Source: Bacteroidales bacterium
GTDB lineage: Bacteria > Bacteroidota > Bacteroidia > Bacteroidales > WCHB1-69
Direction of reading: 5' to 3'
Length of the DNA stretch: 64,000 bases
NCBI GenBank assembly: GCA_023229985.1
Contig: JALNYF010000001.1
Span: forward strand, 410 to 64,409
Positions within the stretch are counted from its first letter, which is position 1, and every line of letters starts with the position of its first letter. Below are positions 41,369 through 61,374 of the stretch, in pieces. Below the pieces are notes generated by a model. That model was not told the origin of the DNA and made no database searches. It saw only the letters and a list, made by a program, of their open reading frames with translations. The translations under genes were made by a program, and so were the position numbers.

Positions 41369-42697
41369 TTAATCCTTGATTTTTCTTTTATCAATAAATT
41401 TAATGGGTTTGCGTTTTATTTCGGGCATTTGTATTTTTCTGATGGTATCTATATCATCGAAAATGATATCTGGTGCGACACGCAGTTTGGCGCGAAACCT
41501 GTCTTTTAAATCTTTGACCATTTCTTCATCGTTAGGGAGGCGACTTCCGATTTTGACGGTAACTTGATCGGTGCCGATTTCGTTTGAACAAACTTCGACG
41601 ATGTAATTTTCCACATAATCCACATTATCCAACACATCGAAAATGGTAGCGGGATATAGTGTTGTTCCTTTCAGTTTAATCATTTGGTTTTTGCGACCGA
41701 TGATCGGGCTGATGCGCATTGAGGTTCGTCCGCAGCTGCACGGTTCGTAGTGGAATTTTGCGATGTCGCCGGTTTTAAAACGCAACAACGGCATTCCTTC
41801 GACGCCTAATGTAGTGATGGTTAGTTCACCGATTTCGCCTTCCGCGACAACGTGGTTTTTTTCGTCCAATAGTTCGCAAATAATCAGTTCGGGGTGATGA
41901 TGTCCGCCCATTCCGGCTTTGCACTCGCCAAAAGTGGTGCTCATTTCGGTAGATGCGTAGGTGGAATAGAGGTCAATATCCCATTTTTCCTTAATGTTTT
42001 TTCCTAACAGGTTTAATGAAAAATCTTGTTCGCGCAGATTTTCGCCGATGCAAATGGCTTTTCTAATAGACGAATTGCGATAGTCGATGCCGTGTTCTTC
42101 GGCGTAATTGATTATTTTTAAGATAAAAGAGGGGACGCAAACGATAGCGTTGGGCTTAATGCGATTGATGGTGTCCCATTGCAGTTCGGGGATTCCGTTG
42201 CCCACTCGAATGACACTTGCCCCCATTTTGCGAATGCCGAGGAAATAGGCTAAGCCAGCCATAAACCGTTTGTCGATGGTGGTCATCAGTTGATAGATTT
42301 CGCCTGGGTAGCCCGAAGCACACGTAAAAGAGATGGCTTCGTTGTATGCCAATCGTTCCAAGTCGTGGTCTGTCATGGCAAAAGTGGTCGGGTCGCTCAA
42401 TGTGCCGGAAGTAGTGATATAATCTACAATTTTTGATTTATCTACGCAATAGAAATCTTCGTTGTGTAGCTGCAAGTCCTCTTTTTGCGTAGTCGGAATT
42501 TGCTGTAGATCTTCCAATGTTTTTATTTTGGAAACATCAATTTTGTGTTGCTGAAACAATCGTTGATAAAAACGCGAATGGGCATTGAGATAGTCCAATG
42601 TTTCTTGCATTTTCTTCTCTTGAAAAGATTTAATTACTTCGCGGGGTTGATATTCAATATCAGGAGTAAACGCAGTGAATCGAGGCATCTTTATCAT
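41369..42697 (-). CDS. PaaK/coenzyme-F390-synthetase-like adenylate-forming ligase
   Basis: ANL-superfamily motifs 'ITTSGTLSDPTTF', 'STYASTEMS' and 'RFKTGDIA'. 442 aa, the short PaaK-type size. Confidence 0.75.
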   Translation of the reverse strand: MIKMPRFTAFTPDIEYQPREVIKSFQEKKMQETLDYLNAHSRFYQRLFQQHKIDVSKIKTLEDLQQIPTTQKEDLQLHNEDFYCVDKSKIVDYITTSGTLSDPTTFAMTDHDLERLAYNEAISFTCASGYPGEIYQLMTTIDKRFMAGLAYFLGIRKMGASVIRVGNGIPELQWDTINRIKPNAIVCVPSFILKIINYAEEHGIDYRNSSIRKAICIGENLREQDFSLNLLGKNIKEKWDIDLYSTYASTEMSTTFGECKAGMGGHHHPELIICELLDEKNHVVAEGEIGELTITTLGVEGMPLLRFKTGDIAKFHYEPCSCGRTSMRISPIIGRKNQMIKLKGTTLYPATIFDVLDNVDYVENYIVEVCSNEIGTDQVTVKIGSRLPNDEEMVKDLKDRFRAKLRVAPDIIFDDIDTIRKIQMPEIKRKPIKFIDKRKIKD

Positions 42698-42700
42698 TAT

Positions 42701-43567
42701 TTATTTCATTTTAAAAATTTCATTTACCCATTTCAGGAAAATCCATTTCCATTTTGCGGTATCGCCGGCAATTTCTTCGCTCATTCCATAGCCGTGACCG
42801 CCGGTTTCATACAGTTGGAAAACGTGTTTTATCTTCTTTTCTGTCAATGCTTTATCTAAATTTACACTATTCTGATACATCACAACGGGGTCATCTTTGG
42901 CGGTGACCAAAAAAGCGGGCGGCATATCGTCCGGAATTTGCAATTCCATCGAGAATTTATCTTGTTGTTCCTTGGTGAAGTTGTTGGTTAGTAGGTTTTT
43001 GCGGGAGCGTTGGTGGGCGATACTGTCCTGCATGGATACAACAGGATAGACCGGCACCACAAAGTCGGGGCGCAGGCTCACCGATGAATGAATGCCGAGG
43101 GGAGCCAAATAATTGTCGTTGGCAAATGCGCCGGACATGGTCACCAAATGACCGCCGGCGGAGAATCCCATTGTCCCTACTTGATATGAGTTAATCTGCC
43201 ACTTATCGGCATTTTCGCGTACGTATTGAATCGCGCGTTGCATATCTTCAATCATGGCGGGATGGTGATGTCCGTTCATTCCCACGCGATAGCGCAATAC
43301 AAAAGCGGTAATACCTTGGCTATTCAGCCATTCTGCCACTTCATATCCTTCCGTCTTAATTCCCATCAGGTGACTATAACTTCCACCCGGGCAAACAATT
43401 ACGGCAATTCTGTTGCGATTGGAATCAGGTGCGGGATAGACGTATAACTTGCTACCATAGCGTTTCATGTTGGGCACATCTTTCCACAGCAAGACGGTTT
43501 GGGACTGTCCGAACATGGCGAGGCTGGTTACAACAAGTAAAAGTGTGATAGTCAATTTCTTAAACAT
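42701..43567 (-). CDS. Alpha/beta hydrolase (esterase) with signal peptide
   Basis: Signal 'MFKKLTITLLLVVTSLAMFGQS', oxyanion 'VCPGGSY', nucleophile elbow 'GFSAGGHL', 'DDPVV', 'GGHGYG'. Confidence 0.8.
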   Translation of the reverse strand: MFKKLTITLLLVVTSLAMFGQSQTVLLWKDVPNMKRYGSKLYVYPAPDSNRNRIAVIVCPGGSYSHLMGIKTEGYEVAEWLNSQGITAFVLRYRVGMNGHHHPAMIEDMQRAIQYVRENADKWQINSYQVGTMGFSAGGHLVTMSGAFANDNYLAPLGIHSSVSLRPDFVVPVYPVVSMQDSIAHQRSRKNLLTNNFTKEQQDKFSMELQIPDDMPPAFLVTAKDDPVVMYQNSVNLDKALTEKKIKHVFQLYETGGHGYGMSEEIAGDTAKWKWIFLKWVNEIFKMK

Positions 43568-43584
43568 TATTCATGAATTAATCC

Positions 43585-43962
43585 TTATGCAGGAAAATAG
43601 GTTTTTATTTCATCTTCCGACAAAGTTTGGTAGCGCAGGTTGATAAAATCTCCGTTGGCATCTACCTCAAAGAAAACGCGGAACATCTCTTCGCCATAGA
43701 ATGACAATTTAGAGTTGGTATTGGGATTACATTCAATATAAATAAGTTGTCGGGGATCGATATTTTTTGCTTTACAGATCTGTTTTATAAGCGAGCCGGC
43801 GGCATAAGTGACGGAAGTTCCGGGGTTATCGTGGTATAATTCCGTTACCAATACGACGGTTTGGTTTTGATAAGATACAATTTTTAATCCACATTTTGAA
43901 GGCATTTCCCATTGTCCTTCAAAATCAAAAATTTCATCATAATATTTATCACAAACTTTCAT
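43585..43962 (-). CDS. Hypothetical 125-aa protein
   Basis: An ORF tightly packed in the operon (17-nt and 7-nt gaps). No motif recognised. Confidence 0.5.
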   Translation of the reverse strand: MKVCDKYYDEIFDFEGQWEMPSKCGLKIVSYQNQTVVLVTELYHDNPGTSVTYAAGSLIKQICKAKNIDPRQLIYIECNPNTNSKLSFYGEEMFRVFFEVDANGDFINLRYQTLSEDEIKTYFPA

Positions 43963-43969: not shown

Positions 43970-45253
43970 TTACAATTTTTTAATATTTCTAACTACATCT
44001 TTTCCGAAAGATTTATTTGCCAAATTTCTGTCGCGGGGTATGAAAGTACCGTCTTCCATTTCGCGAAGCATGACTTGCGCAAATAATTTGAACATTTTTT
44101 CTTCTTGAGATTCGTCTTGATAGAAAGATTTCCAAGCATACTCATACAATTCCTGTAATCTTTCGGGGGACATATTTTTCGGTTTGTAAACCACTTGACC
44201 GGCGTTATAATGATTCCAGTCGTGGTCGAAGATTCTGCCTTGTCGCATCAGGTCGTCGTAGGCTTTGGTATGCGGGAATGGTGCGAGGACGGTAAATTCT
44301 GCCAAGTCGAGGTCAATTTTGAGCAAGAAATCAATCAGGCGGAGGATGTCGTCTTCGGTTTGGTTGTCTAATCCGAGGAGAATGGTTCCTTCCACGCCGA
44401 TTCCGTAGTCGTGGTAACGTTTCACGCGTTCTTTGATATAATCGGAGGTGTCATAAACGGCTTGATAGACGTACCATGCGCCGGCTTGTGCGGCGAGGTC
44501 GAGTACTTCCGGTTTATCTTCTATGGTGTGGCTTATCCATTTTTTCTTGAGCGGAATCATTTCCTTAAAGAGTTGCATTTCCCATTCTGTGCTTTGTGCC
44601 AATGAGTTATCAACAATAAAGAGGCGGTTGTTGTCGATGGTTTCCAATTCTTCGATGGCTTTTTCGATGGGGCGTGGGCGGAAGCAGCGACCGCCGAGGT
44701 AGGAGACGGCGCAGGGGTAGCAGCTGAACTTGCAACCGCGGGAAGCATGGAACAGGTCCACCATTTGTACGCCTTTGTGATTGTATAATTCGCGTTTGTA
44801 CAAATCGCGGCGGGCAGGTCCCACCATCTCAATCGGGGGGTGTTTGCCCATAAAGTTATACACTTTTTTCAGTTTGTCGTTACGAAAATCTTCCAAAACA
44901 GCTTCCATTCTGCCTTCGGCTTCGCCCAAAAAAACAGAATCGGCATGCAGTAAGGTCTCTTCCGCATGCAACATCGTTGAAATACCTCCAAATATTACTT
45001 TTTTTCCTTTGGCGCGGAATTGGTCGGCAATTTCCCATCCTCTTTTAACTTGAGTAGATAGCATCATTGAGATGCCCACTATGTCGCAATCTACGTCAAA
45101 ATCAATGGTATCCACATTTTCATCTACAAAAGCCACCTCAACGTCTTCGGGCAGACAAGCCGCAAAAACTACCGGACCGTGAGGAGGAAGATTAAACGTA
45201 GTTTGTCCGGGGAGCTTGTTCCATTTAGGGTAAATTAATTGAAATTTCATCAT
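43970..45253 (-). CDS. B12-binding-domain radical SAM protein (class B)
   Basis: N-terminal cobalamin-binding-type segment ('IVGISMM...KKVIFGG'), then 'ASRGCKFSCYPC' CX3CX2C. The ATG at 45253 overlaps the upstream stop (TGATG). Confidence 0.8.
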   Translation of the reverse strand: MMKFQLIYPKWNKLPGQTTFNLPPHGPVVFAACLPEDVEVAFVDENVDTIDFDVDCDIVGISMMLSTQVKRGWEIADQFRAKGKKVIFGGISTMLHAEETLLHADSVFLGEAEGRMEAVLEDFRNDKLKKVYNFMGKHPPIEMVGPARRDLYKRELYNHKGVQMVDLFHASRGCKFSCYPCAVSYLGGRCFRPRPIEKAIEELETIDNNRLFIVDNSLAQSTEWEMQLFKEMIPLKKKWISHTIEDKPEVLDLAAQAGAWYVYQAVYDTSDYIKERVKRYHDYGIGVEGTILLGLDNQTEDDILRLIDFLLKIDLDLAEFTVLAPFPHTKAYDDLMRQGRIFDHDWNHYNAGQVVYKPKNMSPERLQELYEYAWKSFYQDESQEEKMFKLFAQVMLREMEDGTFIPRDRNLANKSFGKDVVRNIKKL

Positions 45254-48200
45254 CAAATTTTTTTATTTTTATTTTCTATTATACAATCATAAATTTTGTC
45301 ATCGGGCACATGTTGTTCATATACCAGATTCTTGGGTACGGACGTGCAAAATTGGGCGATAGAGAGCAATTCTTCGTCTTCATCAACCGCCGTAATGTGT
45401 AAGTCCTTTTTTATCAATGCCGCCAATAAGGTACGTTCCCCTTGTCCGCAATGTTTGATTAGCACATTTCCCCTGTTAGGCAACGAAGCGACAAATTGTT
45501 CGTTCCCTTTTCTATTCTTCAACACAGAACGTGCTTTTTGTGCCACTTCTCTTCCTTTATAGATGTAATTATGCCAAACCAAATCTTGATAATAGGCAAC
45601 ATTTTCAACGGTTTGTGACAATTTTTCGTATTCTTCTTTGAACAATTTTCTAAACAAACGAGCCATTTCCAAGGGTTGAATATTCTTTCTAAAATGAATA
45701 TCTTCAGAGTTTATTCTTTTTAAGATAGAAACAGTGACACCCCCTTTTCGTAACATAAATTCTGTTTTAGGCAGAACATAGCCGGTACCATGAATGACAA
45801 TGGGCAGTATATCCAGCTGTAGTTGCTGTGCCAACCGAAATGCGCCCTGATGAAATCGCAAAATGGAAAAATCTTCGGAGCGAGTGCCTTCGGGGAAAAT
45901 CAGAATGGAATACCCTTTTTCAACCATCTTTTTCAATTTCGAGTAATTTTCTTCCACCCCATCCCCCACAGGAAGGAAATCGGCGTACCGAACAATCATA
46001 CGATAGAACGGCATATTCCACGCCCAACGATTGGTGACAACGATGATTTTGGGCGAGAGCAGCAACGTGTAAAGTAAATCCAAGTGCGATTGGTGATTGC
46101 AAATAATGACGGAGGGTTGATGGAAGCGTTCGTTGTGCGGGTTAATCAGTTTAAACTTAACCTGCAACATCATTTTAGATAGAATGCGGAGTGTTGCGCA
46201 TAATAATATATGGTAGAAATTCTTGAGTTTTTCATTTTTATAACCGATGATGTAGAAAAAAGAGGTAAGAATTGTCAATAATACTGATGAAATGGCAAAA
46301 ACGATAAAAGACACAATGGTTTTGAGCAGGTTGAGCAAAGTAATCGGCATCAAACGCAATTTATCTTTTTTGCGGGTCAGCCATCTGAAAATGAGTGGAG
46401 GAATAATGTATGCCATCATTACAACGGAAATCATTCCCACAATCGTAACCTCAGCCAATGAGCGCATGGCGGGGTGCTTGGCAAAAATCAGCGTGCCAAT
46501 TCCAATAAACATGATCAAAGAAGAGAGAATAATGCTGTTTTTGAACTGTGCCAGCATTTTTTTTCCGGTGCGATATTCATACATTACCCCTTCCGTAACA
46601 AAAATGGTGTAATCGTCTCCCTGTCCGAAAATGAATGTTGCCAAGATAATATTCACAATATTAAACTTAACATCAAAAATTCCCATCAATCCGAGAATCC
46701 ATATCCACGCCAAGGTAAGGGGAATGAACGACATCAGCGCGATCTCGATTCTGCCGAAAGAGAATAAGAGAAATACCAAAACGATCAATCCGCAAAAGAA
46801 GAGAACATAGTTAAAATCGCCGGACAGAGCCTCCACCATTCGTGAAACGATCGAAGAATCTGTAAAGGCAAAGACATGTTCATTTTGCTGATTCAGTCTG
46901 TTCTCAATGTCAGCCTTTCGAGATTTATCAACAGATAAAACATTATAAATCATAGATTTATCATTATCTGTCATGACATAGCTTTCAGCTAAGTTTTGCA
47001 AAATAGGTTGAAAATATTCCGGTGGTTGCGGGGAGTACTCTTTTTCAATTATTGCTTTGCAAGGGGAAAAAGCTTCCGCTGTAAAACCGGCATTTTGGGC
47101 AGCGACCTTCAAATCATCCCAAAATTTTGCGTCTCGCCCCTTCCAAAATTCATTCCATTGTTGCAACCGGCGTTTCTGCATCTCGACAGAAGGCAAGAAG
47201 TCCCCGATGCCACTGCACTTTTTGATAGTGCTATCTGCCAATAATTGAGCAAGTTGTGGCTGTATTGATTCATTATTCTGTAAGGCTTCATTAAAAGTAT
47301 TTCCCTCTGCAACACAATAAATGGTTTGAACCGTGGTATCGGATTCCGCCAATATTTCATCAAAAGCGGCTTTTTGATCAGGTGTCATGTAGTTGATTTT
47401 GTGCATATTCGTTTCAAATGAAGTTTGAAAACTGAAGACAAAAAATACACACGTCAGCAGCAAAATAATGATCACAAACCATGGATGTTTTTCGGGGGAT
47501 AAATTGGCAATTTTTCCGAAGGATAATTTGTACGTTTTTTGCACAGATGCAACTCTCTTTTTCCCTAAAAAATGGGGAAGAAAAATGAGTACAAAAATGA
47601 TGGTGCCTATGAGTAATAAGGCGGCAAAGAGTCCCAAATCGCGCATGGCATCGGAACTAATGAAAAGAAGACTCAAAAATGCCCCGACCGTGGTGAGATT
47701 CCCAATCAATAAAGGGTTGACGATATCTTTGATAATCTGTTCTTTATTATCTGTTTTTTTAAAATGGGAAAGAAAATGAATGGGATAATTGACGGCAATA
47801 CCGAAAATGATGGAGGCGGCACCCACAGCAATGATTGAAATGGGATTTTTGAAAAGTACGATGATGCCTAAGGCTATAACTCCGCCAAAAAGAATGGAAC
47901 AGCCTATCAATAAGATACTTCTGAAACTTCTATAGTAGAAAATTAGCAATCCGATGATCAGGACAAGTGCCAACAATACGGCAATGAAACTGTCTTTTTT
48001 TATTTGTTGCGAATTGGTCAGCGATACCAATGATGCCCCGAAAGGGCTCATGTCCACTTTCCCGTTCATTGTTTTTTCAGCAGTAGCAATCGCTTTCTCT
48101 ATATGGTCAATCAGTATGGCATTATTAGATGTTTCGCTTACAGGATATTGAGAAGTCACCACTACGATGGCTTCATCACCCGTTTTATTAAAGATATAGC

Positions 48201-48813
48201 CATTTTCTTCATGATATTGGTCGTTGAGTTGAAAATTGCTCAAATTTTTCAAAATATCGGAAGAAAAGAAAAGCGGGTCGGAGAGAATGACGGTTTGCAT
48301 GCTGCCGATAGGGGAAGCCAGAATACTTTTATCAATTTCAAGTTGTCGGGCAATATGCTCTTTTGTCAACAGTGTGTCCATACGCCGGTAATCTTGTTCA
48401 GTCAGGAAATAGGGCATATTTTGCACGATAAAATTGGTAATTTCTCCAATTTGTTGTTCATTTACTTCGTAAAGAATATCTTTGATAAGATGTGCAGTAT
48501 CGTTGGTATTGAGTTGTGTGACCAAGCTATCGACTGCATTTGTAAGTAATTCGTAATCAACTTCTTGAGCGGTATTGTCTGGCGTATTTTCTTTAATATT
48601 AATGACGATACGGTTAGAAGCTCCAATATGTTGATAGGCGTAGCTAACTCGTTTATTATCATCATTTTGAGGGAAGAAGCTGCTAATATCTTCCACGAAA
48701 TCGAGTTTTGTAATTCCCCAAGCTCCGCTTCCAACCAGCAACAGTAAAAAGAGCCATAGGAGGAGTGGCTTTTTTTCGAAGAAATGGTAAATGGAAACGA
48801 AGAAATGACGCAT
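45253..48813 (-). CDS. Fusion protein: MMPL/RND-like exporter + lysophospholipid acyltransferase + C-terminal methyltransferase-like domain
   Basis: About 12 TM segments in two bundles. The acyltransferase box 'CNHQSHLDLL' with 'FPEGTRS'. A C-terminal 'VLIKHCGQGERTLLAALIKKDLHITAVDED' resembles SAM motifs I/II. Confidence 0.75.
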   Translation of the reverse strand: MRHFFVSIYHFFEKKPLLLWLFLLLLVGSGAWGITKLDFVEDISSFFPQNDDNKRVSYAYQHIGASNRIVINIKENTPDNTAQEVDYELLTNAVDSLVTQLNTNDTAHLIKDILYEVNEQQIGEITNFIVQNMPYFLTEQDYRRMDTLLTKEHIARQLEIDKSILASPIGSMQTVILSDPLFFSSDILKNLSNFQLNDQYHEENGYIFNKTGDEAIVVVTSQYPVSETSNNAILIDHIEKAIATAEKTMNGKVDMSPFGASLVSLTNSQQIKKDSFIAVLLALVLIIGLLIFYYRSFRSILLIGCSILFGGVIALGIIVLFKNPISIIAVGAASIIFGIAVNYPIHFLSHFKKTDNKEQIIKDIVNPLLIGNLTTVGAFLSLLFISSDAMRDLGLFAALLLIGTIIFVLIFLPHFLGKKRVASVQKTYKLSFGKIANLSPEKHPWFVIIILLLTCVFFVFSFQTSFETNMHKINYMTPDQKAAFDEILAESDTTVQTIYCVAEGNTFNEALQNNESIQPQLAQLLADSTIKKCSGIGDFLPSVEMQKRRLQQWNEFWKGRDAKFWDDLKVAAQNAGFTAEAFSPCKAIIEKEYSPQPPEYFQPILQNLAESYVMTDNDKSMIYNVLSVDKSRKADIENRLNQQNEHVFAFTDSSIVSRMVEALSGDFNYVLFFCGLIVLVFLLFSFGRIEIALMSFIPLTLAWIWILGLMGIFDVKFNIVNIILATFIFGQGDDYTIFVTEGVMYEYRTGKKMLAQFKNSIILSSLIMFIGIGTLIFAKHPAMRSLAEVTIVGMISVVMMAYIIPPLIFRWLTRKKDKLRLMPITLLNLLKTIVSFIVFAISSVLLTILTSFFYIIGYKNEKLKNFYHILLCATLRILSKMMLQVKFKLINPHNERFHQPSVIICNHQSHLDLLYTLLLSPKIIVVTNRWAWNMPFYRMIVRYADFLPVGDGVEENYSKLKKMVEKGYSILIFPEGTRSEDFSILRFHQGAFRLAQQLQLDILPIVIHGTGYVLPKTEFMLRKGGVTVSILKRINSEDIHFRKNIQPLEMARLFRKLFKEEYEKLSQTVENVAYYQDLVWHNYIYKGREVAQKARSVLKNRKGNEQFVASLPNRGNVLIKHCGQGERTLLAALIKKDLHITAVDEDEELLSIAQFCTSVPKNLVYEQHVPDDKIYDCIIENKNKKI

Positions 48814-49581: not shown

Positions 49582-49951
49582 TTCCAATATCATTTAGTTC
49601 CAGATTCATTTTGCAAAATTGCACATCTTCGCAGAAAATGGTTGATTTGACCAATAAAAGCCCATTTGATGCTTCAAAAGAGAGTTGACAATCAACGATA
49701 GGATATTCATGGGGTTTCAGGAGTTTGGTAAATTTAATATTTTTAGCTTTGGTGATTCGGAGTGGGCGTTCATAAAATGTTTCCGACAATTCACAGCAGA
49801 GTTGTACCAAACATACTCCGGGTGTAATCGGATTGGAGGGGAAATGACCTTCATAAATAGCAAAATCGGGGTTGAGTTTTACCTTAAATGTTACAACGTC
49901 CGCTGCGGGAGTATCGCATGAAAGAATAGAAAATAGACGATTAATCAGCAT
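49574..49951 (-). CDS. Hotdog-fold 3-hydroxyacyl-ACP dehydratase (APE-cluster type)
   Basis: 'EGHFPSNPITPGVCLVQ' FabA/FabZ-type active-site motif. 125 aa. Confidence 0.7.
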   Translation of the reverse strand: MLINRLFSILSCDTPAADVVTFKVKLNPDFAIYEGHFPSNPITPGVCLVQLCCELSETFYERPLRITKAKNIKFTKLLKPHEYPIVDCQLSFEASNGLLLVKSTIFCEDVQFCKMNLELNDIGNE

Positions 49952-53484: not shown

Positions 53485-54678
53485 TTAATGTCTCATTGTA
53501 ATTGCTATGGCTGCATTTCCGCCGCCGAAGCCGGAAATCATCTTCAAAAAGGCATCTTTTTTGGAACAGTCTTCTTTTCCGTCTGCCACATGAATTTTTT
53601 GCGCGGTTCCCGGAACATCACAGCCTAACGTTTTGATAATATGATGATTTTGAAGAGCCAGCGTGGAAATAATCACCTCTAAAACACCGGCAGCTCCCAG
53701 GGTATGCCCGAAATAGGATTTTAAACTATTGACGGGGAGGTGTGACAGCGCGGCGCGGTGAAGGGCAATAGATTCCATATCGTCGTTGTAAAGGGTTGCC
53801 GTGCCGTGCGCATTGACGAAGGCAAGTCGTTCGAGATTTAGATTTTTCGTTGCTTGCATGATGGCGCGATATTGTCCTTCGGCAGTACGTGAAGGACCTG
53901 AAATGTGGTTGGCATCATTGCAGATAGCACCTGCATGAAAGCTAATGACGTCAGAAGGAGCAGATGTATTCGAAGTATAGGTTGATTCATAAATGATGGT
54001 GGCAGCCGCTTCCCCCAGATTCAATCCGCAACGTTCCGCGTCGAAAGGCTTACATCTTTCCGGCGACAATGCTTTGAAAGATTGAAATCCCGAAATGATG
54101 AATTTGGAAAGTACTTCCGCTCCAACGACTACGACATAATGATAAGTGCGATGACCATCTGATTTCTCGGCTATCGTTTCACCACTGGGATGATACAAAA
54201 AACGCTCGGCTGCAATTTGAGCGGCACAGCCCGAAATACAGGCATTGCTGACTACCAAAGGTTCATTGGGATTATTAAAAAAACGACTTATTAGTTGTGC
54301 AGAACGCCACAAATAGAGTCGTTCTTTTTCAAAACCGCGGAGGTCTTCCAATAAATCGACATTTCCTTTCGTAGTGGAAAGGATGAACAATACGTCCGGT
54401 GAGGCAAGGTCAATAGAGGTTTGGGCAACTGCTCCTTGAACGGAGAGAATTGCCATTTTTTCGAATCGCGTATAGATCGTTGTGTCTGTATGTGGCAAAG
54501 CAGAAAAATAATCCTCTATTTTTTCATCGTTCATTAAGGACGCACAGAATGGGCCCGGCAGTCCGAACTTTGATGAATAGATTGTCAAGTCCGACTTCCC
54601 GGCACAGACCGCCTGATAGTTTTCGGAGGAAGAAAAGCCAAGGGGAGAAACAATATTATGTGATAACATATTCATCAT
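53485..54678 (-). CDS. Beta-ketoacyl-ACP synthase (KS, Cys-His-His)
   Basis: 'SNACISGCAA', 'NAHGTATLYND', 'KSYFGHTLGAAG', 'SGFGGGNAA'. The start 'MMNMLSHNIVSPLG' (ATG at 54678) overlaps the thioesterase stop (ATGA). Confidence 0.85.
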   Translation of the reverse strand: MMNMLSHNIVSPLGFSSSENYQAVCAGKSDLTIYSSKFGLPGPFCASLMNDEKIEDYFSALPHTDTTIYTRFEKMAILSVQGAVAQTSIDLASPDVLFILSTTKGNVDLLEDLRGFEKERLYLWRSAQLISRFFNNPNEPLVVSNACISGCAAQIAAERFLYHPSGETIAEKSDGHRTYHYVVVVGAEVLSKFIISGFQSFKALSPERCKPFDAERCGLNLGEAAATIIYESTYTSNTSAPSDVISFHAGAICNDANHISGPSRTAEGQYRAIMQATKNLNLERLAFVNAHGTATLYNDDMESIALHRAALSHLPVNSLKSYFGHTLGAAGVLEVIISTLALQNHHIIKTLGCDVPGTAQKIHVADGKEDCSKKDAFLKMISGFGGGNAAIAITMRH

Positions 54679-55106
54679 AGCAATCCTTTTTCTTTTTTCC
54701 AATTTTGATAAAAAGTGGGGCAGTTCCATACCAACTGATAATCTTTGTCCAAGAAAACCTGAACACTATAGCCTTTTACCATCAATGTATGGGTGTTTAG
54801 ATTGACGATTTCATAATCGAAGATGATTTTGGCGGCATCCGTATTTCGGTAGGTAATGGTAATTTCTACATTATCTTGATAACGGATGGGTTGTTTATAG
54901 TTCAGATGGAGTTCCACCAATGGGGCATAGAAGCCGTTTTCGTATATAAAGAGGTATTCTAAACCATATTTTTTTCCAAACAATTCGCGGGCATCTTCAA
55001 AATAAAGAGCGTAATTACCATGCCATACAATATTCATGGAATCTACTTCACTGAAGCGGACATCAAAATTTTTTGTGGCAGTTAATTTCAGATTTGGGTT
55101 ATTCAT
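54675..55106 (-). CDS. 4HBT/YbgC-type hotdog acyl thioesterase
   Basis: 'FDVRFSEVDSMNIVWHGNYALYFEDARE'. 143 aa. Confidence 0.8.
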   Translation of the reverse strand: MNNPNLKLTATKNFDVRFSEVDSMNIVWHGNYALYFEDARELFGKKYGLEYLFIYENGFYAPLVELHLNYKQPIRYQDNVEITITYRNTDAAKIIFDYEIVNLNTHTLMVKGYSVQVFLDKDYQLVWNCPTFYQNWKKEKGLL

Positions 55107-55521
55107 TCTCTTTATTGGTTTTAAAAACTTTCATTTTGCATGAGGCGATTAGCGTTTCTTCGCAGTAAACCTTGGCAGTTACCAAAACGGCTTGGTCAAG
55201 ATTCAGTTCCTCAGTCATTTCGGTATGAATAATGGTTCCGCATGGGGGTATTTCAAAAAGCTCAAAATCGTTGATTGCGCCAATTACTCCGATAGCTACC
55301 GGTTGATCTTGATTCATGTAACCGATTTGGGCAGCAGATGTTTGTGCAATATTTTCCATAATACCTGCGACCGACAGCTGATGATTTTCTACCAAGATGC
55401 ACGCTTCTTTAATCTCAAAATCGGTTACAATCATACTATTATTACATTGAATAATATTATCAATCATAACCATTGGAGGTTTTTGAGGAATAAAAGCGGA
55501 AGCGTTGGCGGGTAAACTCAT
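55099..55521 (-). CDS. Hotdog-fold dehydratase (second APE-type DH)
   Basis: 'IPQKPPMVMID' N-terminus, 140 aa, hotdog-size. It overlaps the downstream gene by 8 nt. Confidence 0.6.
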   Translation of the reverse strand: MSLPANASAFIPQKPPMVMIDNIIQCNNSMIVTDFEIKEACILVENHQLSVAGIMENIAQTSAAQIGYMNQDQPVAIGVIGAINDFELFEIPPCGTIIHTEMTEELNLDQAVLVTAKVYCEETLIASCKMKVFKTNKENE

Positions 55522-55533: not shown

Positions 55534-56622
55534 TTAGAATTTTAAACTGCACTGCATAATACTGTGTGCAAGTCCGACACTGTCATAGATTTCATCAATT
55601 TGCAGACCGGAATTGGTGATACATTTTGCCATATCTTCGGAATAGTACATTTTGCTGTTTCCGTTTGCCATGGCAGTAAAATAGAGACTAATTTGGGCGA
55701 GGCAGTAGGAGGCGGTTTCAAATCTTTGTCTGTCCCAGAAAGTTTCCATAATGTACAATTTTGTATTGGGGGACATTGATTGAGCGGCACGGGACAAGAT
55801 GGAGCAAACTTGTTCTTCCGAGAAACAGTCCAAGAATTGGCTCATCCAGATAACGTCATAACCTTTTGGGAAAACGGTGGCATGATCTAAGAGATTGGCT
55901 TTGTAGCCGTCAATCCTATCGGCACCGGCGATGGAAGCGGTTTGTTTTTTCATCATTTCCAATTGTTGGGGTAGATCCATAATGGTAACTTTTACGTCCG
56001 GGCTGAATTTAACGCATTGCAATGCCCAGCGTCCGGTATTGCCGCCCACGTCCAGCAAAGTGCGCGGGTTGTCGTTAAAGACAATTTCGAGTGCTTGTTC
56101 AAAAGAGTTGTCGGAATAATAATGGTCAAAAGCGAACCAGCTTTTTTTGGCTACTTCGGGCAGTTGCGACAATCCTTCATAGATAGTGGACCAATTACCC
56201 AACACTTTGAGCCCTTCCGGTTTCCCGTTCAAGATGGCTTCTTCCAGATGGAAAAGTCCCAAGTAATTGACATCGTGATTAAAATCCATGTTAACACGTG
56301 CCATGTCATCATGAAGTAAAAACCAACCGGCTTTTGCCAAGAAGAAACGTTCTGCTTTAACATAAATAGTGCCAATGGTCAGCGAGGATTCCAATAAAGT
56401 CTGTACACCATACTTGGAAATATTTGATTTCTCAGTAATTTCTTCTAAGGTAAGACCTTCATTATGTTCGTTGAGCATTTGGAAAATACCCCATTTAACC
56501 ATCAAACGTGACACTTGAAAAACAATCGGTCCGAAGGCTATTTCTTGTGCCAACCGTTGAGCTTGCAGGGCGGAAAAACGTTCTTTTTCGTAAATTTCTT
56601 TTTGTGGTGATAACAATTTCAT
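55534..56622 (-). CDS. Class I SAM-dependent methyltransferase (O-methyltransferase family 2-like with N-terminal winged-helix/dimerisation domain)
   Basis: SAM motif I 'LLDVGGNTGRWA', then 'IMDLPQ' and 'YDVIWMSQFLDCF'. Confidence 0.8.
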   Translation of the reverse strand: MKLLSPQKEIYEKERFSALQAQRLAQEIAFGPIVFQVSRLMVKWGIFQMLNEHNEGLTLEEITEKSNISKYGVQTLLESSLTIGTIYVKAERFFLAKAGWFLLHDDMARVNMDFNHDVNYLGLFHLEEAILNGKPEGLKVLGNWSTIYEGLSQLPEVAKKSWFAFDHYYSDNSFEQALEIVFNDNPRTLLDVGGNTGRWALQCVKFSPDVKVTIMDLPQQLEMMKKQTASIAGADRIDGYKANLLDHATVFPKGYDVIWMSQFLDCFSEEQVCSILSRAAQSMSPNTKLYIMETFWDRQRFETASYCLAQISLYFTAMANGNSKMYYSEDMAKCITNSGLQIDEIYDSVGLAHSIMQCSLKF

Positions 56623-56650: not shown

Positions 56651-57550
56651 TTAATTATTTACGTGCCAAAAATCATAATAATTGAACCATTGTTCGGGAT
56701 ATTGACGTAAGATTTTATCCATCGCTTTGCCATATTCGTTTGCCAGATATTTGCTTTTTTCCCTTATATTGAGTGGATTTTTGGGGAGATTAAGTTGAGT
56801 AAGATAGCCCGAATAGTGCAAGGATTTTTCTTTCATGACAGCAACAAAGATGGCTTGCACTTCCAATTGCGCTGCCATAATAAAAGGTCCTAACGGGAGA
56901 GATGCCTGTTTCCCCATAAAATTCACGGGAATTTGTTTATTGCTGCCCCAAACACGGTCGCACAAAATGATGATAATACCTCCGTTATCCAAGGCTTTCT
57001 TAATTTCAAAAATATGCGACATATCTTCTTGTATAGGAATAAGATGAATATTGTTTTTCCGAAGCGATTCATCTCTTTTGTTCTGTAAGGCAGCACCCTC
57101 ACCGCCGTAAATGAGGCAATGAACCTGCTTTCGGTTTTGACGAAGGCAATGACCGATAATTTCAAAATTCCCGATATGCGCCGCCATCAAAATGAAACCT
57201 TCGGGTTGCGATAGCAATGTTTCAAATTGACTCACATTGTCGATGTCAATTGAAAACTGACCGGTATTCCCGGCGAGTACGGCAAACTTATCTAATACGA
57301 CACGTCCAAATACCATGTGATTTCGAATAGTTTTTCGGAAAGATTTCCATTTTGAATAATGATGTATTTCTCTAAAATAACGATAAATACTTCTAAAATC
57401 TTTTGCTCTGAAAAGACAATAAAACGGAACAACACAAAACAGAATGGAATAAAATAGGTTAACCTTGATGGATTTTAAAACCAAAAACAAAAATTTCTGT
57501 CCGAAATTTCCACCTCCTGTTTTCCCCGTCCACTGTTTTTGCTGAGTCAT
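56651..57550 (-). CDS. LpxL/HtrB-like lysophospholipid acyltransferase (LPLAT)
   Basis: N-terminal TM segment, 'AAHIGNFEI' His box, 299 aa. The position next to an ACP matches APE/flexirubin loci. Confidence 0.7.
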   Translation of the reverse strand: MTQQKQWTGKTGGGNFGQKFLFLVLKSIKVNLFYSILFCVVPFYCLFRAKDFRSIYRYFREIHHYSKWKSFRKTIRNHMVFGRVVLDKFAVLAGNTGQFSIDIDNVSQFETLLSQPEGFILMAAHIGNFEIIGHCLRQNRKQVHCLIYGGEGAALQNKRDESLRKNNIHLIPIQEDMSHIFEIKKALDNGGIIIILCDRVWGSNKQIPVNFMGKQASLPLGPFIMAAQLEVQAIFVAVMKEKSLHYSGYLTQLNLPKNPLNIREKSKYLANEYGKAMDKILRQYPEQWFNYYDFWHVNN

Positions 57551-57554: not shown

Positions 57555-57797
57555 CTATTGAATTTTGGCTACTACATAATCGTAAAATTGTGATAATGTT
57601 TTCACATCTTTCATCTCTTCGGGCTTGATTTTAATACCGAAAGTTTTTTCAACTTCTGCAGCGATGTCCACAAAATCGAGACTGTCAATGTGTAAATCTT
57701 CTTTTAGTAAAGCATCGGCATTCAATAAGGCTTCTTCAACTTCTAATTCATTGATTAAGAAATTATTAATCGTTTTTTCGATGGTTTCTCTATTCAT
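57555..57797 (-). CDS. Acyl carrier protein
   Basis: 80 aa with 'LHIDSLDFVDI' phosphopantetheine site. Confidence 0.9.
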   Translation of the reverse strand: MNRETIEKTINNFLINELEVEEALLNADALLKEDLHIDSLDFVDIAAEVEKTFGIKIKPEEMKDVKTLSQFYDYVVAKIQ

Positions 57798-57799: not shown

Positions 57800-59023
57800 T
57801 TATTTTTTTATTTTTTTAATCACTAAAGCACTGTTGGTTCCTCCGAATCCAAAAGAATTGGATAACACCACATCAATATTTTTTTCTAACGTATGAGGAA
57901 CGATATTGAGATTGACGGCGCAGTCGTCGGGTTGTTCAAAATTGATATTGGGGGCGATAAATGAGCTTAGCATCATGAGGTTTGAGTAAACGATTTCGCT
58001 GGCACCCGCCATCCAACATTCGTGTCCAGTCATGGATTTGGTAGAAGAAATGGGAGTTTTATGCGGAGCAAAAAGTTTATTCAACGCCACGGCTTCGTGG
58101 GCGTCTCCTTGTTGAGTGGAGGTAGCGTGGGCATTGATATAATCAACTTCAGCGGCTGTAATTTGAGCATCTATCAGGGCGCGTTCCATGGCAATGAGGG
58201 AACCGGAATCGCTGGCTTGTGAAATATTGGCACCATTGGAAGAGAAACCGTAGCCGGCAACTTCCCCCAAAATGGTGGCACCGCGTTTCACGGCATGTTC
58301 GTATTCTTCCAAAATGACGGTGGCAGCACCGCCGCTGGGTACCAACCCATCACGGTTTTTATCAAACGGGCGGGAGGCGCGCGTTGGCTCATCGATGCGG
58401 GTCGAAAAGGCACTAATACCGTCAAAACTGCCCATCGACAAGTAGTTGGTCTCTTGAGCACCCCCGCAAATTATCAAGTCTTGTAAACCATGGCGAATCA
58501 AAGTCATTCCTAAACCTATGGAATGTGAACCACTTGCACATGCCGCACTGATGGTCATATTGATACCTTTCAGTCTGAAGATGGTGGACAAATTCATGGT
58601 GACGGTTGAGTTCATGGATTGGAAGATGGGACCCGAGCCCTGTATCGTTGTGTCTTTGGTTTGCAAAGTTAAGGTATGAGCGTCAATGACGGCTTTTGCC
58701 GATGAATCGTTGCCATACAAAATGCCAACTTCATTTTGGTTCAAATAATCTAAGTCAATATGGGCATTTTGTAGTGCCTCGACAGTTGCCATGTAAGCAT
58801 ATTCACCTTCTTCTGCCAAGCAGATTCGGGAGCGGCGGTCTAAAAGCGGTTTTAAATAGGGACGTTTCAAAATTCCCGTCAACGGTGAGCGATAACCATA
58901 TTCAATTCTTGCAGGGTCAATGCCGATGCCCGACTTCCCCATATACAATGACTGTCTGACTTCTTCCAGATTTTTCCCTAAACAAGAGTAAATTCCTATG
59001 CCTGTAATTACAACGCGTCTCAT
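57800..59023 (-). CDS. Beta-ketoacyl-ACP synthase (KS, FabB/F-like, Cys-His-His)
   Basis: 'SAACASGSHS', 'NAHATSTQQGD', 'KSMTGHECWMAGA', 'NSFGFGGTNS'. Confidence 0.85.
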   Translation of the reverse strand: MRRVVITGIGIYSCLGKNLEEVRQSLYMGKSGIGIDPARIEYGYRSPLTGILKRPYLKPLLDRRSRICLAEEGEYAYMATVEALQNAHIDLDYLNQNEVGILYGNDSSAKAVIDAHTLTLQTKDTTIQGSGPIFQSMNSTVTMNLSTIFRLKGINMTISAACASGSHSIGLGMTLIRHGLQDLIICGGAQETNYLSMGSFDGISAFSTRIDEPTRASRPFDKNRDGLVPSGGAATVILEEYEHAVKRGATILGEVAGYGFSSNGANISQASDSGSLIAMERALIDAQITAAEVDYINAHATSTQQGDAHEAVALNKLFAPHKTPISSTKSMTGHECWMAGASEIVYSNLMMLSSFIAPNINFEQPDDCAVNLNIVPHTLEKNIDVVLSNSFGFGGTNSALVIKKIKK

Positions 59024-59042
59024 ATAAGTGTTTATGAATTAA

Positions 59043-59771
59043 TTAAGTATAAAGTCCTCCATTAATGGAAATTACCTCACCCGTAATGTAAGCGGCTTGG
59101 TCGGAGGCAAGAAATCCAACTAAATCAGCCACTTCCTCAGGTTCGCCAAATCTTCCGGTAGGAATCATTTTTTTGAGAGTGACTTCATCTAAATCTTTGG
59201 TCATGTCGGTTGCAATAAAACCGGGGGCAACGGCATTCACGGTTACTTTGCGCGGGGCTACTTCCTGTGCCAATGCCTTGGTAGCACCAATCAGTGCAGC
59301 TTTTGCCGCCGAATAATTGACTTGCCCGGGCAACCCTTTTATTCCGGACAAAGAGACAATATTGATGATCCGTCCGTAGCGATGAGTTAGCATATTTTTT
59401 AGCAATCGGCGGGTAACGTAAAAAAATCCGTTCAAGGAGGTATCTAAAACGTTGTGCCATTGTTCATCTTGCATAAATATCAGCATAGTATCTTGGCGCA
59501 CACCCGCGTTATTGACTAATACTTCAATGTAATCATTGGGGTGGTTGTTTTGCCACTGTTCCAATGCTTCTTCAATAGCGGCAGGGCTAGATACGTCGAA
59601 AGGAAGAAGCTCTGCAACCCCATTTTGATTTTCTGTCATTTGTTTTGTTACCAAGGCTGCGGATTCATTTCGGGCGTAATTAATAATTACGGCATAACCC
59701 ATCTTACTTAATTGTAAACAAACAGCCCTTCCAATGCCTCGGGAGCCACCGGTTACCAACGCATATTTCAT
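59043..59771 (-). CDS. fabG: 3-oxoacyl-ACP reductase (SDR, FabG-like)
   Basis: 'TGGSRGIGRA', 'NNAG', 'YSAAKAA', 'INGG'. Confidence 0.85.
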   Translation of the reverse strand: MKYALVTGGSRGIGRAVCLQLSKMGYAVIINYARNESAALVTKQMTENQNGVAELLPFDVSSPAAIEEALEQWQNNHPNDYIEVLVNNAGVRQDTMLIFMQDEQWHNVLDTSLNGFFYVTRRLLKNMLTHRYGRIINIVSLSGIKGLPGQVNYSAAKAALIGATKALAQEVAPRKVTVNAVAPGFIATDMTKDLDEVTLKKMIPTGRFGEPEEVADLVGFLASDQAAYITGEVISINGGLYT

Positions 59772-59772
59772 C

Positions 59773-61281
59773 TTACAAATCCAAGTTTTTATTTTTTAAA
59801 TAATCTATTATATGCTGAATGTCCTCATATTTGGGAGTATCTTCAACAAAAGCGGGAACAATGTTCCGGACTTCCTTATAGAACTCGCGACTGACATTTG
59901 CCAATTTGTTTTCAATTTTCAAACAATCAACCGCCTGAACCAATGAGATATAATAAACAGCCATTACCTGATATGCGTTGTCGATAACCCGTTTGGCAAG
60001 AATGGCAGAATTGGTTCCCATACTTACAACATCTTGATTATCATTATTATTAGGAATACTATGCACGTACATAGAGTTCGATAATGTTTGGCATTCGGCA
60101 GTGGTAGAAGTAGCTGTAAATTGCATGGCTTGCACGCCATAATTGAGTCCTAATTTACCAAGATTCAAGAAAGGAGGCAATATTTCGTTAATTTTGTCGT
60201 GACACAGATAATTCAGTTGTCGTTCCATCAGCATCGTCAATTTGGTTATGGCAATTTTCAGTTTGTCCATTTCAAAAGAAACATAATCTCCGTGGAAGTT
60301 TCCGCCGTGATAAACGGTTTGAGTATCAATATCCACGATGGGATTATCATCTACAGCGTTGAGTTCTTCGGTGAGAATTTGTTCGGTATATAAAAGAGTA
60401 TCCCAGATGGGACCCAAGATTTGTGGGGTACAGCGCAATGAGTAGTAGGGTTGTACTTTATGTTTAAAGATGTGTTCTTGGTGAGGGTGGTACATTTCCA
60501 CTTCGCGTTTGAGCAGACATTGGCTTCCTTGGGTTAGTTTAACCATTTGGCGAGCCACTTCCGATTGCCCATAGTGCCCTTTCACATCATTGAGTTCGGG
60601 GGCGAGAAAATCGTCGTAAGACGCAGCAATTTCGTTAATCATCACCGATGCCGACAATGCTAATTTTAGTAATTTTTTTGCGTAGAACAGATTCACTATT
60701 CCGACGCCGGTCATCATGGCGGTTCCGTTAGTCAGTGCCAAACCTTCGCGTAAATGCGGGTGTATGGGTTTCAGGTTGAGTTGTTGCAGAACGTCTGCGG
60801 TTTTTTGTTTTTTGCCTTGGTAAAAAACGTAGCCTTCGCCGATTAAGGTGAGAGCCAAGTGGGCTAATTGCACCAAGTCACCGCTGGCACCAACGCTGCC
60901 GTGTTGTGGAATGAACGGGAAAATACTATGATTGATAAAAGCAGCCAAGAGTTCCATCACGTCGATATGAACGCCGGATTTGCCATTGGCAAAAGTTTGG
61001 AATCGAGCCAACATGGCGGCTTTTACGTATATTGGAGCAAAAGGTTCGCCGGCACCGCACGAGTGACTGCGGATGATATTATATTGCAAAGACAATAAAT
61101 CGTTATCGTCAATTCGGTATTGTGCCATGGGTCCGAATCCGGTATTGATGCCATAGATGATTTTATCTTTTGCAAAATCTGACAGGAAAGTGTAGCTTGC
61201 CTCAATTCTTTTTCTTGTTTCCGAATCCAACACCAAAGGTTCTTCTGAAAACAATATTTTCTCAACTTCTTTTATTTTCAT
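59773..61281 (-). CDS. Aromatic amino acid ammonia-lyase (HAL/PAL family; tyrosine ammonia-lyase-like, flexirubin-type)
   Basis: MIO-forming 'GSVGASGDLVQLAH', and 'YGINTGFGPMAQYRI'. I prefer the ATG at 61281 over the listed GTG at 61287. The context is PKS genes, not hut genes. Confidence 0.8.
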   Translation of the reverse strand: MKIKEVEKILFSEEPLVLDSETRKRIEASYTFLSDFAKDKIIYGINTGFGPMAQYRIDDNDLLSLQYNIIRSHSCGAGEPFAPIYVKAAMLARFQTFANGKSGVHIDVMELLAAFINHSIFPFIPQHGSVGASGDLVQLAHLALTLIGEGYVFYQGKKQKTADVLQQLNLKPIHPHLREGLALTNGTAMMTGVGIVNLFYAKKLLKLALSASVMINEIAASYDDFLAPELNDVKGHYGQSEVARQMVKLTQGSQCLLKREVEMYHPHQEHIFKHKVQPYYSLRCTPQILGPIWDTLLYTEQILTEELNAVDDNPIVDIDTQTVYHGGNFHGDYVSFEMDKLKIAITKLTMLMERQLNYLCHDKINEILPPFLNLGKLGLNYGVQAMQFTATSTTAECQTLSNSMYVHSIPNNNDNQDVVSMGTNSAILAKRVIDNAYQVMAVYYISLVQAVDCLKIENKLANVSREFYKEVRNIVPAFVEDTPKYEDIQHIIDYLKNKNLDL

Positions 61282-61366
61282 TTGCACATTAATTTACGCT
61301 TTCATTTTTAAATTTCTTGAAATAGGGCATGTTACACTATTTCATTTCTGTCAAAAAATGAGGTGG

Positions 61367-61374
61367 CAAAGATA
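61367..61374 (-). promoter_or_regulatory. Bacteroidetes-type -7 box (TATCTTTG on the minus strand), candidate promoter of the PKS operon
   Basis: caaagata on the + strand, 86 nt upstream of the ATG at 61281. It is the only such box I see between 41.4 and 61.4 kb in intergenic sequence. Confidence 0.5.

Follow-up and report, generated by a model that had tools for sequence, protein, structure and literature searches.

The minus strand of a 64,000-nucleotide stretch of contig JALNYF010000001.1 from an uncultured Bacteroidales bacterium known only through metagenome assemblies (assembly GCA_023229985.1; this whole stretch is hereafter the window) carries a run of 21 genes, g1 to g21 in the direction of transcription, whose content identifies it very probably as the Bacteroidales version of a flexirubin-type aryl-polyene (APE) lipid gene cluster. 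Aryl-polyene clusters are among the commonest biosynthetic gene clusters in host-associated Gram-negative bacteria, and aryl-polyenes have been linked to oxidative-stress protection and biofilm formation. The cluster is an intact yet ordinary member of a very widespread and already recognised family, with nothing new at the level of its class. The sole real lead is an uncharacterised, cluster-bound gene pair coding for a predicted B12-binding radical S-adenosylmethionine (SAM) enzyme (g18) and a small protein (g19).

We scanned the gene products against Pfam and NCBIfam, applying the equivalog cut-offs of the latter, and searched for counterparts by BLASTP against the ape proteins of E. coli CFT073. 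Four products, FlxA (g1), FlxB (g2), FlxJ (g6) and FlxY (g21), exceed the equivalog cut-offs of their NCBIfam models (Table 1). The set of ketosynthases (KSs), chain-length factor (CLF), acyl carrier proteins (ACPs), ketoreductase, dehydratases, thioesterase, methyltransferase, glycosyltransferase, acyltransferases and exporter corresponds to the ape genes of E. coli CFT073 and to the published flx gene table of Chitinophaga, as an original prediction of a type II polyketide synthase-like operon of the known flexirubin or aryl-polyene class, made from the nucleotide sequence, had proposed. That prediction had also noted the non-hut context of the lyase, and by the curated models it is not a histidase: g1 clears the FlxA cut-off and reaches 429.6 bits against hutH, for which the cut-off is 539. 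The lyase also matches Pfam Lyase_aromatic at 1e-160. The orthologues of FlxA and FlxY in Chitinophaga have been biochemically characterised (PMC3992019).

The operon layout stands as originally described. The 21 open reading frames (ORFs) follow one another on the minus strand from 61281/61287 down to 41369, according to the ORF listing and the translations, and with the best start codons the gene-to-gene distances range from -8 to +28 nucleotides. The overlaps named in the prediction are all present, namely ATGA at 50316-50319 (g13 stop and g14 start), ATGA at 54675-54678 (g8 stop and g9 start) and TGATG at 45251-45255 (g17 stop and g18 start). The start of g1 is the ATG at 61281, the GTG at 61287 being a mechanical ORF start only; the exact 502-residue product is recorded in many assemblies, including the NCBI metagenome-assembled genome (MAG) GCA_028704675.1. 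For g16, the likely start is the ATG at 49581. Such a gene run is far beyond chance, and its order is kept in dozens of species-level genomes. The gene content that had been listed is likewise present; left out of that list were g10 as a second KS-fold protein, names for g18 to g21, and the conserved genes below 41369.

Table 1. Features of the flexirubin-type cluster and its flanks (window positions; cut-offs are those of the NCBIfam models unless stated otherwise).
Gene	Assignment	Coordinates	Strand	Basis
g1	FlxA, tyrosine ammonia-lyase, 502 residues, MIO motif GASGDL	59773..61281	-	NF053541 FlxA_rubin_TAL 835.7 bits (cut-off 700)
g2	FlxB, FabG-like ketoreductase, ApeQ counterpart	59043..59771	-	NF053542 FlxB_rubin_SDR 408.5 bits (cut-off 340); 44% identity to ApeQ
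g3	Ketosynthase, FlxC / ApeR-like	57800..59023	-	Pfam ketoacyl-synt and C-terminal domain; 34% identity to ApeR, E 1e-68
g4	Acyl carrier protein, FlxD / ApeF-like, DSL motif	57555..57797	-	PP-binding 1e-9; 37% identity to ApeF
g5	LpxL-like acyltransferase, FlxE, corresponding to the ApeJ C-terminal half	56651..57550	-	Pfam Lip_A_acyltrans 2.6e-13
g6	FlxJ, SAM methyltransferase, ApeB counterpart	55534..56622	-	NF053543 FlxJ_fam_MTase 617.1 bits (cut-off 560); 49% identity to full-length ApeB
g7	Hotdog protein, FlxF / ApeP-like dehydratase subunit	55099..55521	-	Precomputed Pfam ApeP-like PF22817
g8	4HBT thioesterase, FlxH / ApeK-like	54675..55106	-	Pfam 4HBT_2 1.5e-14; 27% identity to ApeK, E 2e-17
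g9	Ketosynthase, FlxI-like, divergent N-terminal half	53485..54678	-	Pfam Ketoacyl-synt_C 1e-20, weak N-terminal domain
g10	Half-size ketosynthase-fold protein, FlxL-like	52846..53475	-	AlphaFold2 (AF2) model and Foldseek
g11	Acyl carrier protein, FlxM / ApeE-like	52585..52842	-	PP-binding 1.2e-9; 53% identity to ApeE
g12	Ketosynthase, FlxN / ApeO-like	51382..52584	-	33% identity to ApeO, E 3e-63
g13	CLF-like KS homologue lacking the catalytic residues, FlxO / ApeC-like	50316..51377	-	Pfam Ketoacyl-synt_2; 25% identity to ApeC
g14	EamA/DMT-type membrane protein, 120 residues	49957..50319	-	Pfam EamA 1.3e-6
g15	ApeI-like hotdog dehydratase subunit, FlxS	49574..49951	-	Pfam ApeI-like 28.6 bits (threshold 28.5); 27% identity to ApeI, E 3e-7
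g16	GT2 glycosyltransferase, FlxT, corresponding to the ApeJ N-terminal half	48814..49593	-	Pfam Glycos_transf_2 2.8e-23; 31% identity to ApeJ residues 8-230
g17	Fusion of MMPL/RND exporter, PlsC-type acyltransferase and C-terminal domain, 1186 residues, FlxU, corresponding to ApeM and ApeD	45253..48813	-	Pfam MMPL, Acyltransferase
g18	Predicted B12-binding-domain radical SAM enzyme, motif CKFSCYPC	43970..45253	-	Sub-threshold Pfam and NCBIfam B12-radical-SAM matches
g19	125-residue protein without family match	43585..43962	-	Usual downstream neighbour of g18
g20	Secreted alpha/beta esterase, BD-FAE (feruloyl / acetyl-xylan esterase) family	42701..43567	-	Pfam BD-FAE 5.9e-26
g21	FlxY, 4-coumarate-CoA ligase, PaaK/F390-synthetase type	41369..42697	-	NF053551 FlxY_rubin 712.1 bits (cut-off 520)
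	BtrH_N/DUF4872 acyltransferase, DarH-like, probable cluster member	40100..41152	-	Pfam BtrH_N 9e-30, DUF4872 1.6e-34
	377-residue protein with weak PlsC-type acyltransferase signature, probable cluster member	38929..40062	-	Pfam Acyltransferase E 0.0027, sub-threshold
	FadD-like long-chain acyl-CoA ligase, 587 residues	61391..63154	-	109 nucleotides upstream of FlxA
	Bacteroidota-type -7 promoter-like box TATCTTTG (TAnnTTTG)	61367..61374	-	Read from the sequence; putative promoter
	Two TAnnTTTG boxes	41244..41263	-	In the 216-nucleotide gap after FlxY

The condensing and processing enzymes comprise three Cys-His-His KSs, two non-catalytic KS-fold proteins, two ACPs and two hotdog proteins. 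Aligning the four KS-like proteins, we found the predicted triad intact in g3, g9 and g12. None of the three reaches the equivalog level of the housekeeping enzymes FabF or FabB, again as expected from the original reading: the fabF scores are 328, 135 and 278 against a cut-off of 494, and the FabB score is 358 against 630. The fourth protein, g13, had been described as lacking both His residues, which is correct (H to G and H to E); its Cys is also lost (C to G), a point that had gone unnoticed. The PDB matches of g13 are to the partner (CLF) chains only (9s5h_C, 6qsp_B, which is ApeC, and 7f28_A), and those of g12 include ApeO (6qsp_A) and 7f28_B.

The prediction had counted a single inactive KS-like protein. 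The half-size product g10 has no Pfam or NCBIfam match, and its AF2 model (pLDDT 89) has the KS/CLF fold, with the ishigamide CLF (6kxd_B), AntE, FabF and the actinorhodin CLF as top Foldseek matches in the PDB (probability 1.0, TMq 0.55-0.66); the cluster therefore holds two non-catalytic KS-fold proteins, not one. In position and size, g10 agrees with the 'condensing enzyme-like' FlxL of Chitinophaga. From the model, we propose that g10 may act as a non-catalytic CLF-like partner of g9.

We compared the window with the flxA-flxY cluster of Chitinophaga pinensis DSM 2588 (MIBiG BGC0000839; Schoner et al., 2014, PMC3992019) through the published gene table and the NCBIfam models rather than by direct alignment of the Cpin proteins. 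From flxA to flxM, this cluster encodes a tyrosine ammonia-lyase, a short-chain dehydrogenase/reductase, a KS, an ACP, an LpxL-like protein, a dehydratase, a hypothetical protein, a thioesterase, a KS, a methyltransferase, a halogenase, a condensing-enzyme-like protein and an ACP; from flxN to flxY follow a KS, a CLF, a deacetylase, LolA, a hypothetical protein, a dehydratase, a GT2, an acyltransferase/exporter, a retinol-reductase-like protein, a peptidase C45, a phosphopantetheinyl transferase and a CoA ligase (PMC3992019 supplement). In the same lettering, the order in the window is A B C D E J F H I L M N O [EamA] S T U [radical SAM] [g19] [esterase] Y. Thus, FlxA comes first and FlxY last in both clusters, and the counterparts of B-F, H, I, J, L-O and S-U stand in near-identical order, except that FlxJ has moved to a place between FlxE and FlxF. 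FlxG, FlxK (halogenase), FlxP (polysaccharide deacetylase), FlxQ (LolA), FlxR, FlxV (CrtI-like oxidoreductase), FlxW (peptidase C45 type) and FlxX (phosphopantetheinyl transferase) have no counterpart in the window. Conversely, the window gains the small EamA protein, the predicted B12-radical-SAM enzyme, the 125-residue g19 and the BD-FAE esterase, together with the BtrH-like and PlsC-like acyltransferases downstream.

This comparison changes how three features singled out in the original prediction are to be read. The supposed extra terminal module does not include FlxY, because this gene is the regular end of the Chitinophaga cluster; it closes the tail here as well, and the remainder of the tail is a recurrent Bacteroidales feature. 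The remark that no DarB is in view holds for the window and loses its force as an oddity, since the Chitinophaga flx locus likewise contains no darAB genes and these lie in a separate cluster elsewhere in the C. pinensis genome (PMC3992019). Likewise, the pair formed by a GT2 and a small DMT-type protein is nothing special: the GT2 is the standard FlxT and corresponds to the N-terminal half of ApeJ, and an EamA gene recurs in most related loci.

The flexirubin cluster of Flavobacterium johnsoniae UW101 (Fjoh_1075-1110, MIBiG BGC0000838) shares with the window the tyrosine ammonia-lyase, PaaK-type ligase, KSs, CLF, ACPs, hotdog proteins, thioesterase, LpxL-like acyltransferase, GT2 and exporter-acyltransferase fusion. 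Its gene order differs, and unlike the window it includes darA/darB (twice), an ABC transporter, LolA, a deacetylase, outer-membrane beta-barrel proteins, FlxV and FlxW. A radical SAM gene is missing from it; indeed, the radical SAM protein, the BD-FAE esterase and the small EamA protein appear in neither the Chitinophaga nor the Flavobacterium gene table.

Could the cluster instead belong to the proteobacterial ape family proper, of the E. coli and Xenorhabdus type? Thirteen of the 21 window products match at least one E. coli CFT073 Ape protein, and the ape core, defined as apeO/R, apeE/F, apeC, apeI/P, apeQ and apeM (bioRxiv 10.1101/2020.12.19.423268), is represented by g12/g3, g11/g4, g13, g15, g2 and g17. 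Counterparts of ApeQ, R, O, C, E, F, B, K, I, J, M and D of the E. coli and Xenorhabdus doucetiae clusters are present at 24-53% identity, and so is the general logic, in which KS:CLF and dehydratase heterodimers work without an enoyl reductase, the ring is methylated, and the product gets a lipid anchor and is exported by an RND protein. ApeJ is split between g16 and g5, the latter matching ApeJ residues 258-551 (E 1e-24, 24% identity), while ApeM and ApeD, both matched in part by g17 alongside HpnN/HAE3 NCBIfam models, are fused. What sets the window apart is its initiation, which relies on a tyrosine ammonia-lyase together with a PaaK-type ligase, both above their equivalog cut-offs, where ape clusters use ApeH. 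No BLASTP match to ApeH, ApeG, ApeL or ApeN was found among the window proteins, and g14 has none in the E. coli ape cluster. The FlxI/FlxL-type pair of a KS and a half-KS is extra, as is the tail with the radical SAM, g19 and esterase genes, and the gene order is that of flx and not of ape. We consider membership in the ape family proper very unlikely.

A still less credible origin, to which we give practically no weight, is housekeeping fatty-acid synthesis joined by a histidine-utilisation lyase, or else a decaying and non-functional cluster. The KSs, ketoreductase and ACPs do match FabF/FabB/FabG/AcpP models, yet the equivalog cut-offs for fabF, FabB and hutH are all missed, CLF-type partners are present, and there is no enoyl reductase, FabD, FabH, hutU or hutI. 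Against decay, all 21 ORFs are intact, synteny is kept across families, and strain variants from other metagenomes differ mostly by synonymous changes, with dN/dS of ~0.05-0.25 for most genes, showing that they are under purifying selection.

A few observations count against our assignment of the cluster or against details of it. By raw similarity, g12 is equally close to FabF structures and to ApeO. The identification of g7 as ApeP is weak (E 4e-5 against E. coli ApeP in the pairwise comparison, and no match in our own Pfam scan), and a PDB sequence search with g7 gave no credible match. The pairing of g9 with g10 is drawn from adjacency and fold only, and a profile-profile comparison of g10 with the CLF family gave a probability of only 9.6%. 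Finally, LolA/LolB-like carriers (ApeL/N, FlxQ) are missing, leaving no evident carrier for the route to the outer membrane.

To place the flexirubin-type cluster among its relatives, we scanned species-representative genomes with a CLF alignment and obtained at least 588 tblastn-confirmed stretches, of which the best 80 loci were mapped by tblastn (individual loci are given below by L numbers). All but one of these 80 carry the label of Bacteroidales or of some other Bacteroidota group, and their source MAGs, from rumen, gut and digester, include Paludibacteraceae, Muribaculaceae, Prevotellaceae, Odoribacteraceae, Tannerella, Alistipes and Lentimicrobiaceae. The closest species-representative CLF (63% identity) is from a Lentimicrobiaceae MAG. 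The gene order of the window is kept throughout the longer loci. Among the 46 that continue for 9.5 kb or more past the CLF gene, the EamA gene is found in 41, and the recurrent tail consists of g17, often a FlxV-like gene, the radical SAM gene, g19, the esterase, FlxY and in places the 377-residue acyltransferase. Two loci (L009 and L017) have the window order from the EamA gene onward, neither reaching as far as g1-g6. The special architecture that had been suggested is thus the norm of the lineage, common across Bacteroidales MAGs.

Most relatives have one or two FlxV-like genes of the CrtI family between the exporter and the radical SAM gene, and the window has none; some are without the radical SAM/g19 pair, and a few have a DarA/DarB or ABC transporter insertion. 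Between the g11 ACP and g12 KS genes, L079 carries an insert (3725-8693) with an ABC ATPase, an ABC-2 permease, two hotdog-like matches and two DarH-like genes. At the equivalent position, L015 has one hotdog-like match and two DarH-like genes, and L016 has an unrelated 8-kb insert (559-8806).

On the downstream side, the cluster probably extends below 41369 to 38929. The 377-residue protein follows FlxY in L009, L017, L057, L068 and many metagenome loci, and in L115 the order is FlxY, a DarH-like match and then the 377-residue protein, as in the window. Searches with this protein found no credible match among PDB sequences. The protein encoded at 40100-41152 is related to DarH without being an equivalog, scoring 242.1 bits against NF053550 with a cut-off of 300.

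The literature already holds traces of this family. Flexirubin-type clusters have been mined from five of six Bacteroidetes classes, amounting to 268 biosynthetic gene clusters (PMC9248904), synteny with the flexirubin cluster of Chitinophaga has been noted for an arylpolyene cluster of Bacteroides xylanisolvens (pBGC-12; PMC12940132), and the aryl-polyene families of Prevotella have been called poorly studied (PMC13455363). The window belongs with this uncharacterised Bacteroidales 'arylpolyene' family, that is, with pBGC-12, the Prevotella gene cluster families and the flexirubin cloud of these three studies. No Bacteroidales aryl-polyene product is described in the literature that we found.

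The part of the tail that distinguishes the lineage begins with g18. Its CxxxCxxC motif reads C-KFS-C-YP-C, and the Pfam Radical_SAM score of 24.2 bits lies under the gathering score of 29.5, as does, by a narrow margin, the score for the B12-binding domain PF02310 (31.1 against 32.1). Several NCBIfam B12-radical-SAM families match down to E 7e-17, none at its cut-off, and the best PDB sequence match is AprD4, at only E 0.01. Compared with family-level relatives, g18 is more strongly conserved than any other protein of the cluster, at 76-87% identity against 42-63% for the CLF. In the reverse direction, we scanned metagenomes with g18 and examined 80 loci (L088-L167). A FlxV-like gene lies upstream in 28 of 47 and g19 downstream in 42 of 65. 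This reverse search returns g18 almost only in cluster context, and we rejected the idea that it is a housekeeping gene adjacent by chance. We likewise rejected the notion that the radical SAM enzyme replaces the oxygen-dependent FlxV in anaerobes, as both genes co-occur in most relatives.

The partner protein g19 has no Pfam, NCBIfam or PDB sequence match, and its AF2 model (pLDDT 83) has no fold match in the PDB. We found 607 homologues; among the 120 listed, every name given by the source is 'hypothetical protein', Bacteroidales MAG. The next gene, g20, has a signal-like sequence at the N terminus of its translation and scores 192 bits against the PaeX-like model (cut-off 550). This esterase could supply plant-derived hydroxycinnamates as starter units. 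The g20 esterase adjoins FlxY even in relatives without the radical SAM gene (L012, L013, L057, L068). Of the remaining accessory products, g14 weakly resembles ArnE/ArnF (ArnE 25.6 bits, cut-off 92), and the best NCBIfam matches of the glycosyltransferase g16 are polyprenyl-phosphate sugar transferases, all under cut-off.

Homology to the characterised systems suggests the following pathway. FlxA would convert tyrosine to 4-coumarate and FlxY would activate 4-coumarate as its CoA thioester; the curated models assign these two predicted initiation enzymes with high confidence, their activity being known from the Chitinophaga orthologues. On the ACPs g4 and g11, the starter would then gain malonyl units through the KS g3, the pair g12:g13 and a second putative pair, g9 and g10, each round presumably including reduction by FlxB (g2) and dehydration by the hotdog pair g7/g15. 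Pfam scans of the cluster ORFs found no enoyl reductase domain; without enoyl reduction, a conjugated polyene would therefore build up. By analogy with the Ape system, on which this elongation scheme is modelled, FlxJ (g6) would methylate the aryl ring in the manner of ApeB, and the ApeK-like thioesterase g8 would edit or release the chain.

For anchoring and export, the model is the APE-lipid of Xenorhabdus, where a lysophospholipid is acylated by ApeD and receives GalNAc from ApeJ, which next transfers the chromophore, and ApeM exports the product (bioRxiv 10.1101/2020.12.19.423268). We infer from the homologous parts that the chromophore would be joined to a membrane anchor by the GT2 g16, the LpxL-like acyltransferase g5 and the PlsC domain of g17, and that the MMPL part of g17 would export the product. 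Putative lineage-typical tailoring or assembly functions are left for g18, g19, g20, g14 and the downstream BtrH-like and PlsC-like acyltransferases.

This pathway may end in an APE-lipid-type conjugate or in a classical flexirubin, in which the polyene acid is esterified to a 2,5-dialkylresorcinol. We lean, by a small degree, toward the APE-lipid-type conjugate. No tblastn match to DarA or DarB was found within the 64-kb window using as queries the DarB of L084 and its DarA-like neighbour, and no scanned window ORF has a Pfam match to the FlxW-type peptidase C45, the proposed joining enzyme of the ester. Among the best 80 genome loci, only one, L084 from a Prevotella MAG, carries DarB no farther than 10 kb from the CLF gene. 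The full set of ApeD, ApeJ and ApeM equivalents was also counted toward a non-resorcinol acceptor.

The classical ester would call for DarA and DarB encoded elsewhere in the genome, with the DarH-like acyltransferase just downstream of FlxY taking part, and we regard it as a realistic possibility at somewhat less than an even chance. Several points favour it and count against an APE-lipid-type conjugate. The missing DarAB in 64 kb proves little because the flx and darAB loci of C. pinensis are separate, and the same arrangement could apply here. Equally, the presence of FlxE, FlxT and FlxU is no argument against a resorcinol ester because the reference flexirubin producers carry them too. The DarB of L084 is genuine (557 bits, NF053539 cut-off 550) and its two in-cluster DarH proteins score 338 and 359; the window protein at 40100-41152, by comparison, stays under the DarH cut-off, which speaks against the ester. 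A DarA-like gene follows g18 in four metagenome loci, with the order radical SAM, DarA-like, DarB and DarH-like match in L165 and L166. Since L084, L165 and L166 carry DarA-like/DarB/DarH-type matches, some Bacteroidales encode the dialkylresorcinol branch in-cluster, and in total one Prevotella MAG and four metagenome contigs have DarA/DarB inside or beside the cluster. In L084, the stretch 14352-20595 consists of FlxV, the DarA-like gene, DarB and the two DarH genes.

Upstream of FlxA, the TATCTTTG box lies 17 nucleotides past the stop of the FadD-like gene and ~86 nucleotides ahead of the FlxA ATG. As originally stated, it is the sole intergenic minus-strand TAnnTTTG within 41369-61374. Across 38.3-64 kb there are seven further matches, all inside coding sequence, and three other intergenic matches fall just outside the operon (41244-41251, 41256-41263 and 63926-63933). 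The two at 41244-41263 may be the promoter of the genes downstream of FlxY. The boxes before FlxA (61367-61378) and before the DarH-like gene (41256-41268) have an extended motif in common, TTGT-TATCTTTGCC and TTGTGTATTTTTGCC, which could reflect a common regulator or merely the Bacteroidota -7 consensus. Between 44.5 and 64 kb, a sigma-70 promoter scan, whose consensus is not applicable to Bacteroidota, gave 55 hits against 51 in shuffles and an intrinsic-terminator scan 16 against 19, with no excess in either. An Rfam scan of the whole window found neither a cobalamin riboswitch nor one of any other kind near the operon.

Comparison of strains adds one observation on the history of the cluster. 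In two metagenome variants (L003 and L006), g1 and g2 are 100% identical to the window at the nucleotide level, g3-g13 differ by up to ~5%, and g14 differs by ~10% with gaps, which suggests a strain mosaic produced by recombination inside the cluster.

As for the surroundings, the FadD-like ligase upstream of FlxA was considered as the starter-activating enzyme and rejected, FlxY filling that role. Outside this species, a tblastn match to it occurs in one related locus only (L029), so it probably lies outside the cluster. Farther away, 16485-21543 holds two tandem paralogous genes for cargo of the type IX secretion system (811 and 869 residues), each with IgGFc_binding, PKD and CHU_C domains, and other CHU_C or Por_Secre_tail proteins are encoded at 26-2173, 2980-6453, 32253-34742 and 63167-63901. 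The only RNA gene that the Rfam scan detected in the window is a tRNA-Phe (GAA) at about 27257-27330.

Taken together, these results leave the flexirubin-type cluster as a familiar one with a lineage-typical tail. To our knowledge, a cobalamin radical-SAM tailoring step is without precedent in every characterised APE or flexirubin pathway, and our literature search found no paper on the radical-SAM module of these clusters. Anaerobic Bacteroidales of gut, rumen and digester might, as a tentative proposal that we ourselves hold to be rather unlikely, make a distinct lipid, with g18 and g19 providing an oxygen-independent tailoring step, such as C-methylation or some other radical change to the polyene or the lipid that anchors it, with starters fed by g20, and with no dialkylresorcinol ester. 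None of the three reference clusters in this comparison contains the g18/g19 module, with the esterase and the small EamA protein, which makes this module the obvious target for characterisation in this family.

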